From positions 1-3,483 of the IMG/VR virus record IMGVR_UViG_2728369593_000026: DNA of 3,483 bases. One strand, given 5' to 3'. This stretch comes from a virus. Lineage: Duplodnaviria > Heunggongvirae > Uroviricota > Caudoviricetes. Made by a program: the position numbers and the translations under genes. This document shows, piece after piece, positions 1 through 3,483 of this stretch. Every line of letters begins with the position of its first letter. Position 1 is the first letter of the stretch. Below the pieces are notes generated by a model, which was not told the origin of the DNA, did not search any database, and saw only the letters and a program-made list of their open reading frames with translations.

Positions 1-99
1 CCTCGTAGTGTTAAACGTTATGGTGAAATTAGTGGAAATGTAGGTACAGAAACCCGTCCACGAAATATTGCATTTAACTTTCTGGTGAGGGCTAAATAA
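1..99 (+). CDS. Tail-fibre protein, C-terminal end (5'-truncated by window edge); variable receptor-binding portion of the + orientation
   Basis: Frame 1 is open from the window edge to TAA at 97-99, translating ...PRSVKRYGEISGNVGTETRPRNIAFNFLVRAK*. It sits immediately upstream of a tfa gene, the usual stf-tfa arrangement. The homology is recalled, not searched. Confidence 0.55.
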   Translation, partial: PRSVKRYGEISGNVGTETRPRNIAFNFLVRAK

Positions 100-132
100 T
101 GAAACCTTTTTGATGAAAATGGGCTGGCTACA

Positions 133-690
133 GTGCCGGGCGATATGCGTTGTTTTTATTATAATGCAGTAACGTATGAATATACCGGCTGGTCTGATGA
201 ATATATTAATACTGGCGTAAGTATGCCCGCCTGTTCCACTGGTATTGACCCGAGCGAAAACATTCCGGGAAAAGTGGCAGTATTTACGGGTAAGGGATGG
301 AGCCATGAAGAAGACCATCGCAATGAGACCGTTTACTCAACTGAAAATGGCGCAGCTGTTACAGTGGATTATATCGGTGCCATCAAAGACGGTTATGTCA
401 CGCTTTCACCGTTAACGCCATACGATAAATGGGATGGTGAGAAATGGGTGACGGATACCGAGGCACAGCATAGCGCCGCAGTAGAAGCGGCAGAAGCACA
501 GCGCCAGTCGCTGATTGATGCTGCAATGGCTTCCATCAGTCTGATTCAACTGAAATTACAGGCCGGGCGGAAGCTGACGCAGCCAGAAAACACCCGACTT
601 AACGCTGTGCTGGATTATATTGACGCGGTGACGGCAACAGATACCAGCACAGCGCCGGACGTCATCTGGCATGAACTGCCGGAGGCGTAG
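133..690 (+). CDS. tfa: Tail-fibre assembly protein (Tfa/U family chaperone)
   Basis: 185-codon ORF ending TAG at 688-690. It aligns in my recollection with lambda Tfa (e.g. AVF..EEDHR..TVY and DKWDGEKWVTDTEA against lambda QKWNGTAWVKDTEA) and carries the C-terminal DTSTAPD motif. The start is uncertain: GTG at 133 or ATG at 145, both with weak Shine-Dalgarno sequences; in-frame stops at 97-102 exclude anything earlier. Confidence 0.85.
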   Translation: MPGDMRCFYYNAVTYEYTGWSDEYINTGVSMPACSTGIDPSENIPGKVAVFTGKGWSHEEDHRNETVYSTENGAAVTVDYIGAIKDGYVTLSPLTPYDKWDGEKWVTDTEAQHSAAVEAAEAQRQSLIDAAMASISLIQLKLQAGRKLTQPENTRLNAVLDYIDAVTATDTSTAPDVIWHELPEA

Positions 691-1105
691 GCCATTCAAT
701 ATCTGGCGCACCGGAAGTATCGACCAGCTCCAGTGCGTCCAGATAATCCAGCCACAAATTATATTGCGCCAGTTCCTCACCTTTCAGGCGACCAATCGCT
801 GCTTTACCAGGCCATTGCTTACTGTTTATGTATTCGTTGACCTGATTAATCAATTGCTGCTTTTCCAGCGCGGCTGCGGCAATTTGTTCCTCATGAGTTG
901 GCGGTGGAATTTCCCCCCAGGTGGGAAGGCCATCATCACCCGCGATGCGTACTTTCCCTTGCAACGTTCTGTCTTCAATAAATTCCATGTAAGTGTCATA
1001 TGTCACTTCGACAACATCAGCAAGTTCCCATCCGGCCTGTTCATATTTCGCCGCATCATTTTTAGCGAAAAAACTATTATTTGAGGCGCTATAAACCATT
1101 TCCAT
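662..1105 (-). CDS. Alternate tail-fibre assembly protein (Tfa'/U'-like) belonging to the opposite-orientation cassette
   Basis: 147-aa ORF with ATG at 1103-1105 (reverse strand) and stop at 662-664. Its C-terminus carries the same Tfa signature (LWLDYLDALELVDTSGAPDIEWP) as the + strand Tfa. It lies directly downstream of the minus-strand fibre cassette, with one nucleotide between that stop and this start. Confidence 0.8.
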   Translation of the reverse strand: MEMVYSASNNSFFAKNDAAKYEQAGWELADVVEVTYDTYMEFIEDRTLQGKVRIAGDDGLPTWGEIPPPTHEEQIAAAALEKQQLINQVNEYINSKQWPGKAAIGRLKGEELAQYNLWLDYLDALELVDTSGAPDIEWPTPPAVHAR

Positions 1106-1106
1106 A

Positions 1107-1505
1107 TTAATACCCTACTGCAATATAAAAAACTGATTCACCAGCGTCCTGAGCACCTGTCCCCGGAATTCCAGACCAGCCTTTGTTAATGAATGCAAAA
1201 CCGGTATTACTCAGATCAGATGCTCTGTACATCGGGCTGAATATCCAGTAGTTGGCTGCATATGTTTGTCCGAAAACAATGCCATAGCACTGATTTGTAA
1301 ATGGCGTAGAAAATAATTTTCCACCATTACCAGCGATAGCACCGAATCGCATCTGGAATCCATTAGGGAAATTAACGCCACCCGATGGGGAAGACCAGTA
1401 AGACATATCAGGTATCTGATTATCTCCTGTGCCCACATCCCTTTTCGCCGCTTCTCCTAAACCAACGTTTATGAAAATACAGAAATAACGAGCAAATGGC
1501 ATCAT
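1107..1505 (-). CDS. Alternate tail-fibre C-terminal (variable) cassette, Sv'-like; appears promoter-less and unfused in this orientation
   Basis: Minus-strand ORF ending TAA (reverse of 1107-1109), Gly/Asn/Ser-rich like phage fibre tips (…GTGDNQIPDMSYWSSPSGGVNFPNGF…). The reading frame runs through the crossover site at 1452-1477 and stops being meaningful beyond it; the ATG at 1505 is probably not a real start. This is the expected layout for a cassette that becomes fused to the constant fibre 5' part after inversion. Confidence 0.7.
   Translation of the reverse strand: MMPFARYFCIFINVGLGEAAKRDVGTGDNQIPDMSYWSSPSGGVNFPNGFQMRFGAIAGNGGKLFSTPFTNQCYGIVFGQTYAANYWIFSPMYRASDLSNTGFAFINKGWSGIPGTGAQDAGESVFYIAVGY
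1452..1477. other. Din-family invertase crossover site (pix/gix/hix-like), right boundary of the invertible segment
   Basis: TTCTCCTAAACC-AA-CGTTTATGAAAA: two 12-bp half-sites in inverted orientation (9 of 12 positions symmetric) around a 2-bp AA core. It fits the recalled consensus TTnTCnnAAACC-NN-GGTTTnnGAnAA and the hixL sequence TTCTTGAAAACCAAGGTTTTTGATAA. It lies 55 bp upstream of the invertase start and inside the minus-strand fibre reading frame, as gixR does in Mu. Confidence 0.75.
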
Positions 1506-1531
1506 TCCTGCTTTTGTCAGGGAGAGCTACC

Positions 1532-2086
1532 ATGCTTATTGGCTATGTACGTGTGTCAACAAATGACCAGAACACAGATCTACAACGTAATGCGCTGAAC
1601 TGTGCAGGATGCGAGCTGATTTTTGAAGACAAGATAAGCGGTACAAAGTCCGAAAGGCCGGGACTGAAAAAACTGCTCAGGACATTATCGGCAGGTGATA
1701 CGCTGGTGGTCTGGAAACTGGACCGACTGGGGCGCAGTATGCGGCATCTTGTCGTGCTGGTGGAGGAGTTGCGCGAACGAGGCATCAACTTTCGTAGTCT
1801 GACGGATTCAATTGATACCAGTACCCCAATGGGGCGCTTTTTCTTCCATGTGATGGGTGCCCTGGCTGAAATGGAGCGTGAACTGATTGTTGAACGAACA
1901 AAAGCTGGACTGGAAGCTGCTCGCGCACAGGGACGAATTGGCGGTCGCCGTCCCAAACTTTCACCAGAACAATGGGCACAGGCCGGACGATTAATTACAT
2001 CAGGAGTTCCTCGCCAGAAGGTGGCGATCATCTATGATGTTGGCGTATCGACTTTGTATAAGAAGTTTCCGGTCGGAGATAAATGA
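1532..2086 (+). CDS. pin: Serine site-specific DNA invertase, Pin/Gin/Cin/Hin (Din) family
   Basis: 184-aa ORF starting ATG at 1532, with GGGAGAG Shine-Dalgarno at 1520-1526. The N-terminus MLIGYVRVSTNDQNTDLQRNAL carries the catalytic Ser9 in the VRVSTNDQ motif; the resolvase-type catalytic domain (GDTLVVWKLDRLGRS) and C-terminal helix-turn-helix (VAIIYDVGVSTLYKK) follow. It is near-identical in my memory to E. coli PinE/PinR. The ORF-track start at 1496 is rejected as a spurious upstream extension. Confidence 0.95.
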   Translation: MLIGYVRVSTNDQNTDLQRNALNCAGCELIFEDKISGTKSERPGLKKLLRTLSAGDTLVVWKLDRLGRSMRHLVVLVEELRERGINFRSLTDSIDTSTPMGRFFFHVMGALAEMERELIVERTKAGLEAARAQGRIGGRRPKLSPEQWAQAGRLITSGVPRQKVAIIYDVGVSTLYKKFPVGDK

Positions 2087-2390
2087 AACCGCAGCACGTC
2101 GTATGCAAGAACGTGCCACGGCTGGCTGATGGACGTTCGATAGCGCGAGTTTGAATGAAAATCAGCCGGAGATGATTTTACATAATTGCTACGGAATTAT
2201 TCAATACAGGGATTGCTTGTGTCTGCATGGATTGACCTGAAATAGTCCCGAAAATTTCTCTAAAAAACTCGAAAAAAATGGTAACTAATTGAATGTATTA
2301 ATATGCAATGGTACGTGTTTGGGATTAAAAGATGAACGTAATTTTGTTTAACACATTAATTTTAAATGATTTTCTTGTTTGTTGACGAAA

Positions 2391-2416
2391 ACAGGAATCG
2401 TGTTCGGTCTCTTTTT
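2391..2416 (+). terminator. sdsR: Hairpin plus T-tract matching the 3' end and intrinsic terminator of sRNA SdsR (RyeB); probable attR core at the prophage-chromosome junction
   Basis: ACAGGAATCGTGTTCGGTCTCTTTTT is 25 of 26 identical to the SdsR 3' end as I recall it (…ACAGGAAUCGUAUUCGGUCUCUUUUU). It is a stem-loop followed by a T5 run on the + strand, immediately upstream of pphA, which matches the known pphA-sdsR synteny. The conserved 5' part of SdsR is absent upstream, where AT-rich DNA sits instead. Confidence 0.55.
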
Positions 2417-2550
2417 ATCTGTTAAAAGCCAGAAGCATTCCCTTCGCTGACTTTATAGTCAACCATAACACACACTCTACTGTCTGAGTCCAGCGTTTTT
2501 TAACATTCTTGTTAAGATTATGTGATCTTTAGCGCGGGAGGAAAATATTG

Positions 2551-3207
2551 ATGAAACAGCCTGCGCCCATTTATCAGAGAATTGCGGGTCATCAATGGCG
2601 ACATATCTGGCTTTCAGGCGATATACACGGTTGTCTTGAGCAATTGCGCCGCAAATTATGGCATTGTCGTTTTGATCCGTGGCGAGATTTACTTATCTCA
2701 GTGGGAGACGTTATCGATCGTGGGCCGCAAAGTTTACGTTGCCTGCAGTTACTGGAACAACATTGGGTTCGTGCGGTAAGAGGCAATCATGAACAGATGG
2801 CGATGGATGCGCTGGCATCCCGGCAGATGTCTTTATGGTTGATAAATGGCGGCGACTGGTTTATTGCGCTGGCAGATAATCAACAGAAACAAGCGAAAAC
2901 GGCGCTGGAAAAATGTCAGCATTTGCCCTTTATTCTTGAATTACACAGTCGCACCGGCAAACATGTTATTGCTCATGCCGATTATCCAGATGATGTCTAT
3001 GAATGGCAAAAGGACGTCGATTTGCATCAGGTCTTGTGGAGCCGCTCGCGATTAGGTGAACGCCAAAAAGGGCAGGGAATTGCAGGTGCTGATCATTTCT
3101 GGTTTGGTCATACACCTTTGCGCCATCGCGTGGATATTGGCAACCTGCATTATATTGATACCGGTGCTGTCTTTGGGGGAGAACTGACTCTTGTGCAATT
3201 GCAATAA
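2551..3207 (+). CDS. pphA: Serine/threonine protein phosphatase 1 (PrpA/PphA), calcineurin-like metallophosphoesterase
   Basis: 218-aa ORF starting ATG at 2551, with GGGAGG Shine-Dalgarno at 2535-2540. It carries the metallophosphatase motifs GDIHG, GDVIDRG and GNHE. The sequence MKQPAPIYQRIAGHQWRHIWLSGDIHGCLEQL… matches my recollection of E. coli PphA. The ORF-track start at 2548 is a TTG one codon upstream and is rejected in favour of the ATG. Confidence 0.92.
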   Translation: MKQPAPIYQRIAGHQWRHIWLSGDIHGCLEQLRRKLWHCRFDPWRDLLISVGDVIDRGPQSLRCLQLLEQHWVRAVRGNHEQMAMDALASRQMSLWLINGGDWFIALADNQQKQAKTALEKCQHLPFILELHSRTGKHVIAHADYPDDVYEWQKDVDLHQVLWSRSRLGERQKGQGIAGADHFWFGHTPLRHRVDIGNLHYIDTGAVFGGELTLVQLQ

Positions 3208-3399
3208 TTAAAAATCACCGTACTCCTGTGCAGGTCGCCAGAAACCATCTATAAAATCCTCAATCGGAAAACAACCGCCATGGCGGATCCGTTGATCGCT
3301 CATAGAATAAAGACACTGCTGTTCCGTGTTGTAGACATCCACAACAATATCTTCACAACCGCCATCCAGGTAGCAAACAAAAAGTACCAGCGCGAACAT
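3208..3399 (-). CDS. yebW: Small conserved hypothetical protein, 63 aa, consistent with YebW
   Basis: Minus-strand ORF with ATG at 3397-3399, preceded by GGGGA, and stop at 3208-3210: MFALVLFVCYLDGGCEDIVVDVYNTEQQCLYSMSDQRIRHGGCFPIEDFIDGFWRPAQEYGDF. Size and position next to pphA match what I recall for E. coli yebW. The frame stays open upstream to the window edge, so a longer form cannot be excluded. Confidence 0.55.
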   Translation of the reverse strand: MFALVLFVCYLDGGCEDIVVDVYNTEQQCLYSMSDQRIRHGGCFPIEDFIDGFWRPAQEYGDF

Positions 3400-3483
3400 T
3401 TCATCCCCGAAGTGTGGTGCCGTACCGTTAAGTTTAGGAGAGATTTTACAACGGGGGAATAACCCGGACAAATAACCCGCCAT

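Follow-up and report, generated by a model that had tools for sequence, protein, structure and literature searches.

The C segment of phage P1 with cin, the Min system of p15B, and the B segment of Shigella boydii with pinB belong to the same Din family (Hin/Gin/Cin/Pin) of DNA inversion systems. Systems of this family have two inverted 26-bp sites, in each of which imperfect 12-bp half-sites flank an identical central dinucleotide, and their invertases of about 180-195 aa use Ser9/10 as the nucleophile. The P segment of the K-12 element e14, associated with pinE, is composed of two gene pairs, stfP-tfaP and tfaE-stfE. It is 1797 bp long (PMC12529663), and e14 flips in culture (PMC4272514; PMC12529663). 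In the G segment of phage Mu with gin, the gene pairs are S-U and U'-S'. This segment has a constant N-terminus, two inverted cassettes, and the invertase gene directly outside the right site, all as in the locus described here. The G segment is, however, about 3 kb long, and its fibres are much longer (S = 504 aa). In the flagellar switch of Salmonella, Hin acts on hix sites. While the 26-bp sites and a serine recombinase with a C-terminal HTH are common to Hin and our locus, Hin flips a promoter; here it is the 3' end of a gene that flips. Min and certain P2-like prophages are shufflon-like, with more than two sites (PMC4272514).

The DNA analysed here (the window) is a stretch of 3,483 nucleotides, and its position 1 is the physical end of the draft contig AKYH01000074.1 (100% match) of the assembly GCA_001605745.1. 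We put the probability at about 0.92 that positions 1-2086 comprise an invertase gene and, to its left, the right three quarters of a Pin-type invertible tail-fibre segment with two sites. The switch is of the Din family, a textbook host-range switch of an already known kind. It offers little new biology, and its value is as a record of the switch state in the source genome. The features are as follows (window coordinates, strand, description).

1..99, plus strand: 3' end of the tail-fibre gene (last 32 codons and stop), C-terminus of the ON variable cassette, StfE-like
1..1463, no strand: part of the invertible segment in the window, ~77% of the ~1897 bp between the two core dinucleotides
99..690, plus strand: tfa, TfaE-like tail-fibre assembly chaperone, partner of the ON cassette
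662..1105, minus strand: tfa', TfaP-like chaperone, 147 aa, partner of the OFF cassette
1107..1464, minus strand: OFF fibre cassette, 119 codons, alternative C-terminal receptor-binding part, promoterless, of a divergent Gp53-like_C type
1452..1477, no strand: right crossover site, pixR-like, TTCTCCTAAACC AA CGTTTATGAAAA, core dinucleotide at 1464-1465
1532..2086, plus strand: pin, DNA invertase of the small serine recombinase type, 184 aa, intact
1554..1616, no strand: candidate Fis-dependent recombinational enhancer inside the 5' end of pin, proposed from a motif and spacing scan

ORF, domain, and protein comparisons put each element of the gene order (fibre 3' end, tfa, tfa', fibre cassette', site, and pin) where the first-pass annotation had placed it. 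The layout, which that annotation regarded as canonical for an inversion switch, is the same as those of the annotated Mu G/gin record and of e14 P/pinE. It had also described a complete right half. The right half is indeed present, but its extent was understated; the ~1.9-kb segment is similar in size to that of e14, and 1463 bp of its ~1897 bp (about 77%) are inside the window. This part covers both chaperone genes, the OFF cassette in full, and the end of the ON cassette, and the missing 432 nt and the left site are beyond the contig end. When the window is taken together with its relatives (denoted L001, L002, and so on), a constant fibre N-terminus, two inverted tip-plus-chaperone cassettes, and an invertase just outside one site are all found, which is the layout of a tail-fibre segment. 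In the source genome, completeness of the segment is unproven, as the contig stops short of the left site, the constant fibre part, and the remainder of the prophage.

A window that starts at the end of a draft contig, and whose first base differs from all relatives, could be an assembly chimera or a chance juxtaposition in which no real invertible unit exists. However, L012 and L015 (99.8%), which were assembled independently, show this arrangement too, as do the complete genomes L001 and L002 (95-97%), and zero chance matches to the crossover site are expected. A chimera is already refuted by the independent assemblies, and we give this explanation virtually no weight.

The right crossover site matches pixR of K-12 e14 at 25 of the 26 bases. 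It is unique in the window, where 0.00 matches are expected by chance (200 shuffles). No second site is found in the window with up to three mismatches, nor with up to eight mismatches when the AA core is fixed. An inverted copy of the site had been expected within 1-2 kb upstream, and such a copy, TTCTCCCAAACCAAGGTTTTCGAGAG, is present in L012, which is collinear with the window and 99.8% identical to it; its core precedes the counterpart of window position 1 by 432 nt. The two sites of L012 are 1899 bp apart, centre to centre. All relatives with sequence across the region (L001, L002, L003, L005, L012, L017-L019, and L021-L026) have the inverted two-site arrangement, and the left site of relatives is identical to that of e14. 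The proposed location of the left site, upstream in the fibre gene, thus holds in every relative that reaches that far, while the source contig stops at position 1. For the source genome itself, the left site is predicted to be CTCTCGAAAACCTTGGTTTGGGAGAA, about 420-445 nt upstream of window position 1 and inside the fibre gene. A shufflon with more than two sites is not supported, with one site in the window and two in relatives. The halves of the site are also conserved in Mu, although gix departs from the window site at several positions.

At the left end of the window, frame 1 is open up to the TAA at 97-99. All 31 residues of this fibre end recur at the C-terminus of the 289-aa fibres in L005 and L012, and the last 20 residues show 70% identity to the end of e14 StfE. 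In the full-length relative, the Collar domain is found weakly (E=0.0036). As read from the assembly, the orientation in the source genome is the one that expresses the StfE-like tip as a fusion to the constant fibre N-terminus. The orientation of e14 in the K-12 reference is the opposite of that in the window, where the StfE/TfaE-like cassette joins the fibre.

The OFF cassette, a match to PHROG 1396 'tail fiber protein' (E=5e-25), shares 99% identity with residues 113-231 in the full-length 231-aa fibre of L003, in which the OFF cassette of the window is joined to the constant N-terminus and read as the C-terminus of the fibre. The constant 112-aa N-terminus carries one of the cassettes in L003 and the other in L012. 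The joint of the constant region, ...RKNPFGDIKSDGTV.TALENLGLGE, is the same in e14. Pfam Gp53-like_C spans the full OFF cassette, below threshold (E=0.011). In BLASTP, the match between the OFF cassette and the StfP tip of e14 is limited to the GLGE joint, and the absence of further BLASTP similarity between these two tips is one of the differences from e14. No NCBIfam family was found for the fibres or the chaperones.

The tfa gene belongs to Pfam Caudo_TAP (E=1e-25). In the assembly, it has a 2-bp deletion after nt 107 (CCT[GT]TTTT), seen against L001, L002, and L003, so that it reads ATG AAA CCT TTT TGA with a stop at codon 5 (111-113). Restoring the two bases brings identity to 100% with the 197-aa Tfa encoded by L003, and to 61% with e14 TfaE, whose gene lacks this frameshift. 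The remainder of tfa is open from 103 to 690, with possible restarts at GTG 133 and ATG 145. The truncated 181-aa product is found on no other contig in the collection. Since tfa is frameshifted as assembled, the ON orientation may give non-functional fibres.

The product of tfa' also belongs to Caudo_TAP (E=3e-30), matches PHROG 188 (E=3e-57), and is 55% identical to e14 TfaP. The 3' ends of tfa and tfa' overlap by 29 bp, as do those of the convergent tfaP and tfaE of e14. The cassettes are unrelated to those of Mu, except for a weak similarity (30%) between tfa' and U'. A search of the window for inverted repeats gave only short imperfect pairs. Pairs of 18-23 nt at about 603-752 fall where the convergent chaperone genes have their 3' parts, and homology between the chaperones probably accounts for them. 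A 29-nt inverted pair at 155-183/1104-1132 is probably due to chance.

The 2-bp frameshift of tfa is private to this assembly. It is among the observations that favour a fossil switch, i.e., a decaying prophage remnant that is truncated, or whose fibre gene is interrupted to the left of the window, with the segment locked and Pin left as an orphan or acting in trans. The source contig ends inside the fibre cassette; on the same contig, within 8 kb, two neighbouring chromosomal genes are also disrupted: letB is split and has three single-base insertions, and rsmF is shortened. Among relatives, L013 has the same cassette beside a truncated 42-aa resolvase, and IS insertions are found near pin. 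Contig breaks in fibre genes are, however, common in short-read assemblies because the cassettes repeat among prophages, and the assemblies L005, L006, L015, and L016 are likewise interrupted in the segment or close to it. The disrupted letB and rsmF may indicate either a decaying genome or a poor assembly. Against decay of the switch itself, Pin is full length, its allele recurs unchanged in 365 blocks of the public collection, and the right site is perfect. L012 and L015 are collinear with the window at 99.8% identity, with L012 extending intact across the left site and the baseplate genes. We therefore consider a fossil unlikely, and prefer to read the locus as part of a two-site invertible segment with its own invertase.

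Pin, the invertase of this segment, contains the Resolvase (E=1.5e-51) and HTH_7 (E=4.9e-14) domains and matches PHROG 125 'DNA invertase' (E=1e-96). It is 96.2% identical to PinE and 77.9% identical to Gin. Residues 1-181 align without gaps to the Gin structures 3UJ3 and 4M6F (E=5e-93), and the catalytic Ser9 is present. Pin also matches the structure of the Hin DNA-binding domain (1HCR). The residues that contact Fis and the enhancer are conserved among Hin, Gin, and Cin, and are reported to be specific to invertases that depend on Fis and the enhancer (PMC3798978). Pin carries them as K46/K47/R50 and Q150/R153/L154, corresponding to K47/R48/K51 and Q151/R154/L155 of Hin (Hin numbering is one higher).

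The enhancer of hin, a 65-bp element with two Fis sites, is located in the invertase gene, at a distance of about 100 bp from one hix site (PMC3798978). In the window, two Fis-like 15-bp cores exist at 1554-1568 and 1602-1616. They are 48 bp apart, and the centre of the proximal core is 96.5 bp from the crossover centre. This geometry matches that of the hin enhancer, suggesting 1554-1616 as a candidate Fis enhancer. Note that in the motif scan this pair of cores scores no better than other pairs in pin. Both cores are invariant across pin of the window, e14 pinE, and Mu gin, with coding constraint as a confounder; the conserved 5' region shared by pin and gin includes both of them. A simple scan of 1380-2560 found neither a sigma-70-like promoter for pin nor a terminator.

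Inversion was assessed by comparison between genomes. In L003, window positions 2-1470 are exactly inverted at 99.8% identity, while 1451-3483 are collinear; the two alignments overlap exactly at 1451-1470. L021 and L022 differ from each other only by inversion of the segment, the sequence outside it being 100% identical. A T/C marker in the inner half-site travels with the cassette while the outer half-sites stay put, which maps the recombination joint to the central AAACCAA. Complete E. coli genomes include both junction types: the StfE-like cassette is found beside pin in 248 of them, and two O55:H7 strains, DEC5E and DEC5B, are in opposite orientations. The flips between L003 and the window and between L021 and L022 show, by genome comparison, that this element family does invert in nature. 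The region causes breaks in assemblies as well as apparent differences between strains that are mere flips, e.g., L021/L022 and DEC5B/DEC5E.

From what is known of the family, the following mechanism can be proposed. Pin dimers would bind the 26-bp site at 1452-1477 and, in the fibre gene about 1.9 kb further left, its inverted copy. An enhancer within the initial ~90 bp of pin would be bound by Fis, and the Pin dimers and Fis would form an invertasome, which would cut both sites at the central AA/TT, rotate one pair of subunits by 180 degrees, and religate the ends. Comparison of flipped and unflipped genomes shows that the flip swaps the 3' part of the fibre gene and the downstream chaperone gene. 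In one orientation, the constant N-terminus of ~112 aa (ending in ...ENLGLGE) carries a 177-aa StfE-like, Collar-type tip, with the 197-aa TfaE-like chaperone. In the other, the same ~112-aa constant N-terminus carries the 119-aa Gp53-like tip, with the 147-aa TfaP-like chaperone. Progeny phage would carry one of two receptor specificities.

The OFF reading frame does not stop at the edge of the segment. It continues outside to an ATG at 1502/1505, giving an ORF of 131/132 aa that consists of the leader MMPFARYFCIFIN and the Gp53-like tip. The ORF beside pin is thus made up of a leader of 13-14 codons outside the segment and whichever cassette adjoins pin. The exact 132-aa ORF is not on record, while a 131-aa call is. 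Such an ORF (1107-1502/1505) could be expressed alone and block adsorption of other phages, as e14 StfE2 does; the switch would then give the host a defence activated by the recombinase, in addition to or in place of a role in phage host range. StfE2 is reported to block adsorption of T2 (PMC12529663), and the ORF in the window has its architecture, i.e., the stfE leader followed by a Gp53-like tip (Gp53-like_C: E=8e-16 for e14 StfP, E=0.011 for the window). The leader, M(M)PFA(R/C)YF(C/F)IFINVGLGE, and its ATG are conserved between the window element and e14, and a gene is called from the position of the leader ATG in nine of ten contexts with identical Pin. On the other hand, an open run of thirteen codons has roughly an even chance of arising at random, and conservation of the leader is confounded by the sequences of the pin promoter and the crossover site. 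No promoter-like site is found on the minus strand at 1380-1600, where the ATG of the ORF is only 26-29 bp from that of pin, and the cassette has no BLASTP similarity to the StfP tip past the GLGE joint. The complete and apparently functional prophage of relatives is also sufficient to explain the switch. We find a defence role improbable. It is more doubtful still that the 131/132-aa ORF is a separate protein acting at or near host receptors, by which the widespread Pin switches of the sdsR prophages would double as a recombinase-toggled superinfection defence against unrelated phages, with two blocking specificities. If defence of the StfE2 type does extend past e14, the common sdsR-prophage element is a natural test case.

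The invertible tail-fibre segment is at the extreme right end of a prophage that is inserted in the 3' end of sdsR (ryeB), next to pphA, in a chromosome of the Escherichia/Shigella lineage. Downstream of pin, there are about 300 bp of AT-rich DNA, a 3' fragment of sdsR, pphA, and yebW. The chromosome junction is inside sdsR at window position 2386, and the prophage-chromosome joint is within the last ~31 nt of sdsR. In DEC5E, a prophage of ~42 kb with integrase, lysis genes, terminase, contractile tail, and baseplate exists between yebY and pphA. While e14 sits at icd, the element here is a prophage at sdsR/ryeA-pphA with a contractile-tail module (Baseplate_J, Phage_Wedge1). The window is not part of e14 itself, in which mcrA is downstream of pinE; the neighbours here are the sdsR fragment, pphA, and yebW, and only 1451-2087, 409-817, and 47-92 of the window align to e14 DNA. 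The sdsR gene is a published prophage hot spot (PMC7380047). The ryeA/ryeB attachment site of the Salmonella phage PhiW104 is within the last 23 bp of ryeB (Balbontin et al. 2008, summarised in PMC7380047). The joint is at the 3' end of sdsR (ryeB) in both cases, although the host is Salmonella for PhiW104 and Escherichia here, and the window shows the right joint only.

No Rfam family is found above threshold in the window. Two matches below the cut-offs were rejected as RNA genes: CssrB (28 bits against a cut-off of 76) is merely the hairpin after pin, and RyeA (24 bits against 37) reflects the truncated sRNA locus. The remnant of the sdsR terminator gives no fold, because the 5' half of its stem is phage DNA. 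The prophage splits the sdsR/ryeA small-RNA locus, and this could shift the balance between SdsR and RyeA.

Over its full length (3483/3483) the window is identical to one end of AKYH01000074.1, a draft contig in assembly GCA_001605745.1; window position 1 is that contig's physical end. Every element and coordinate that the first-pass annotation had listed for 1-2086 as a tail-fibre switch with its invertase is borne out by ORFs, Pfam, PHROG and protein identities. The features, together with a candidate enhancer, are the following.

1-99, + strand: 3' end of the tail-fibre gene (last 32 codons and stop)
99-690, + strand: tail-fibre assembly chaperone gene (tfa, TfaE-like); Pfam Caudo_TAP E=1e-25, 61% identity to e14 TfaE
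662-1105, - strand: second chaperone gene (tfa', TfaP-like), 147 aa; Caudo_TAP E=3e-30, 55% identity to e14 TfaP
1107-1464, - strand: alternative fibre C-terminus, promoterless; PHROG 1396 'tail fiber protein' E=5e-25
1452-1477: 26-bp crossover site, TTCTCCTAAACC AA CGTTTATGAAAA
1532-2086, + strand: pin, 184 aa
1554-1616: candidate enhancer, a pair of Fis-like cores of 15 bp, spaced 48 bp apart

The ATG of tfa overlaps the fibre stop (TAATG), and the 3' end of tfa' overlaps tfa by 29 bp. An imperfect inverted repeat (29 nt, 83%) between 155-183, in the 5' part of tfa, and 1104-1132, at the junction of the OFF-cassette stop and the tfa' start, is probably due to chance.

The system is already known, and in many complete genomes in RefSeq the locus is annotated as pinE plus tail-fibre assembly proteins. 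It belongs to the Din family: all the family features that can be sought in the window are found there, the second site is found in relatives, and an enhancer can be inferred. Its mode of working is the same as that of e14 P/pin and Mu G/gin, and P1 C/cin, of the same family, works like it. The element is not e14 itself. Only three patches align to e14 DNA: the stretch with pin and the site (92.8%), the part where the chaperone genes overlap (89%, reversed), and 46 nt at the end of the fibre gene.

The right crossover site occurs once in the window and differs by one base from the K-12 e14 right site, TTCTCCCAAACCAACGTTTATGAAAA; among 200 shuffled sequences there was no match to it at up to 3 mismatches. 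Pin shares 96.2% of its residues with PinE and 77.9% with Mu Gin. Its alignment to the sequences of the Gin crystal structures is gap-free (E=5e-93), and the nucleophilic Ser9 is present. At K46/K47/R50 and Q150/R153/L154 it carries the equivalents of Hin residues whose conservation McLean et al. report to be specific to Fis/enhancer-dependent invertases (PMC3798978). The index of the public collection lists exactly this Pin protein in 365 blocks.

Inversion is evident when genomes are compared. In a related genome, L003 (GCA_047897415.1), window 1451-3483 is collinear at 99.7% while window 2-1470 is reversed at 99.8%, and the two alignments overlap exactly at the crossover site. There the OFF cassette of the window (the silent alternative beside pin) supplies the C-terminus of an entire fibre of 231 aa, and the ON cassette of the window (fibre C-terminus and chaperone in the expressed orientation) is the silent one. 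The inner half-site is polymorphic (T/C), and this marker moves with its own cassette; the outer half-sites are fixed, CGTTTATGAAAA next to pin and GGTTTTCGAGAG within the fibre gene. The joint is thereby placed within the central AAACCAA, where an exchange at the core AA would be expected to put it. Two chicken isolates (CP148498 and CP148483; loci L021 and L022) have 100% identical flanks and differ solely by an inverted 1.87-kb segment. In both, an IS3-family element (2214-3427 of the locus) separates pin from the right crossover site, and that they still differ by inversion is consistent with an enhancer acting at a distance. The O55:H7 strains DEC5E and DEC5B also carry the segment in opposite orientations, and the StfE-like cassette adjoins pin in 248 complete E. 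coli genomes. Ten contexts of the identical Pin include eight full fibre genes, with the fibre-fused tip of Collar type in three and Gp53-like in five. For e14, it is reported that both orientations are present together in culture (PMC4272514; PMC12529663).

The left site had been predicted to lie upstream of the window within the fibre gene. The window's contig ends at position 1, and the prediction holds in five related genomes (L001, L002, L003, L005 and L012). Window 2-3483 has a collinear counterpart in L012 (GCA_043524845.1) at 99.8% identity, differing by 5 mismatches and one 2-bp gap. Upstream, L012 has a 289-aa fibre gene that contains the inverted site TTCTCCCAAACC AA GGTTTTCGAGAG, which is identical to the e14 left site and whose core lies 432 nt before the base corresponding to window position 1. 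The centres of the two cores are 1899 bp apart. By this spacing the window holds 1463 of ~1897 bp (77%) of the segment; the right part is thus present, but the share is larger than the 'right half' first described.

By analogy with the family, Pin dimers at the two inverted sites and Fis at the enhancer would form an invertasome, in which cutting at the core dinucleotide would be followed by 180-degree rotation of one subunit pair and religation. We infer these steps from the family, the genome comparison giving the position of the joint only. The constant ~112-aa N-terminus (ending ...ENLGLGE) would be joined either to a StfE-like tip of 177 aa with a weak Collar domain, followed by the 197-aa TfaE-like chaperone, or to a Gp53-like tip of 119 aa, followed by the 147-aa TfaP-like chaperone. 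The 119-aa tip matches Gp53-like_C over its full length at a sub-threshold E=0.011 (e14 StfP, E=8e-16), and sequence and domain comparison found no similarity of this OFF tip to the e14 StfP tip above family level. The putative Fis-dependent enhancer at 1554-1616 agrees in geometry with that of hin, which is 65 bp long and ~100 bp from hixL (PMC3798978): the centre of its proximal core is 96.5 bp away from that of the crossover. Both cores are unchanged across the window pin, e14 pinE and Mu gin, in a sequence that also encodes the conserved catalytic N-terminus, and their Fis-motif score is not distinctive.

A conserved leader of 13-14 codons, lying outside the segment, and the adjacent cassette together make up the ORF beside pin (131/132 aa), which has the same architecture as e14 StfE2. 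StfE2 is reported to block phage T2 adsorption following P-segment inversion (PMC12529663). A promoter scan for the window's ORF gave no promoter evidence, and it is very improbable that this ORF would act as a StfE2-like adsorption-blocking protein.

The orientation expressed in the window is that of the StfE/TfaE-like cassette, opposite to the K-12 reference e14 arrangement. The ON chaperone gene has a 2-bp deletion at 105-113, CCT[GT]TTTT, giving ATG AAA CCT TTT TGA with a stop at codon 5. The shortened 181-aa product is on record for this contig alone among all indexed public contigs, so the lesion is either private to the strain or an assembly error. Elsewhere in the same contig, letB (yebT), ~6.9-7.1 kb from the contig end, has three single-base insertions, two of them making CTAG...CTAG, and is divided into ORFs of 315 and 511 aa; rsmF is called at 401 aa, not 479. 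These lesions suggest either a decaying, pseudogene-rich (Shigella-like) genome or poor assembly. Given these and the chaperone frameshift, the switch in this genome may be incomplete or inactive; this fossil reading is rather unlikely. pin and the right site are intact.

K-12 homology (98.2%) starts at window 2386 within sdsR (ryeB), so window 1 to ~2385 is the right end of a prophage with pin as its last gene. Of sdsR only the last 31 nt (2386-2416) are left; next come the native promoter region of pphA, pphA itself (2551-3207) and yebW. Balbontin et al. 2008, as cited in PMC7380047, describe the ryeA/ryeB locus as a hot spot for prophage insertion. In DEC5E the prophage is ~42 kb, with integrase and excisionase beside yebY, then a rac-like early region, lysis genes and terminase, as well as head genes, contractile tail and baseplate.

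The sdsR terminator hairpin no longer folds because the 5' half of its stem has been replaced by phage DNA. Over 2317-2454, ryeA has its native promoter side (K-12 start ~window 2454, minus strand), which now faces the prophage end, antisense to pin; the Rfam RyeA match is partial and below threshold. A hairpin directly 3' of the pin stop (2064-2120) has a folding z-score of only -1.6; at a sub-threshold 28 bits (cut-off 76) it matches the 3' end of CssrB, an sRNA family of Shigella. The AT-rich, ORF-free 2130-2385, between pin and the attachment-site remnant, has three promoter-like minus-strand matches and is possibly an arm of the phage attachment site. The yebW frame (3208-3483) is open for 91 codons to the window end, while most RefSeq records annotate 63 aa. 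In another locus (L013, 2852-6905), a tail module of a different, Mu-like kind (Gp46/Gp48) contains the identical 131-aa pin-proximal ORF and tfa', beside a resolvase fragment of 42 aa and a gene for GmrSD, an arrangement that shows cassette exchange between unrelated prophages.
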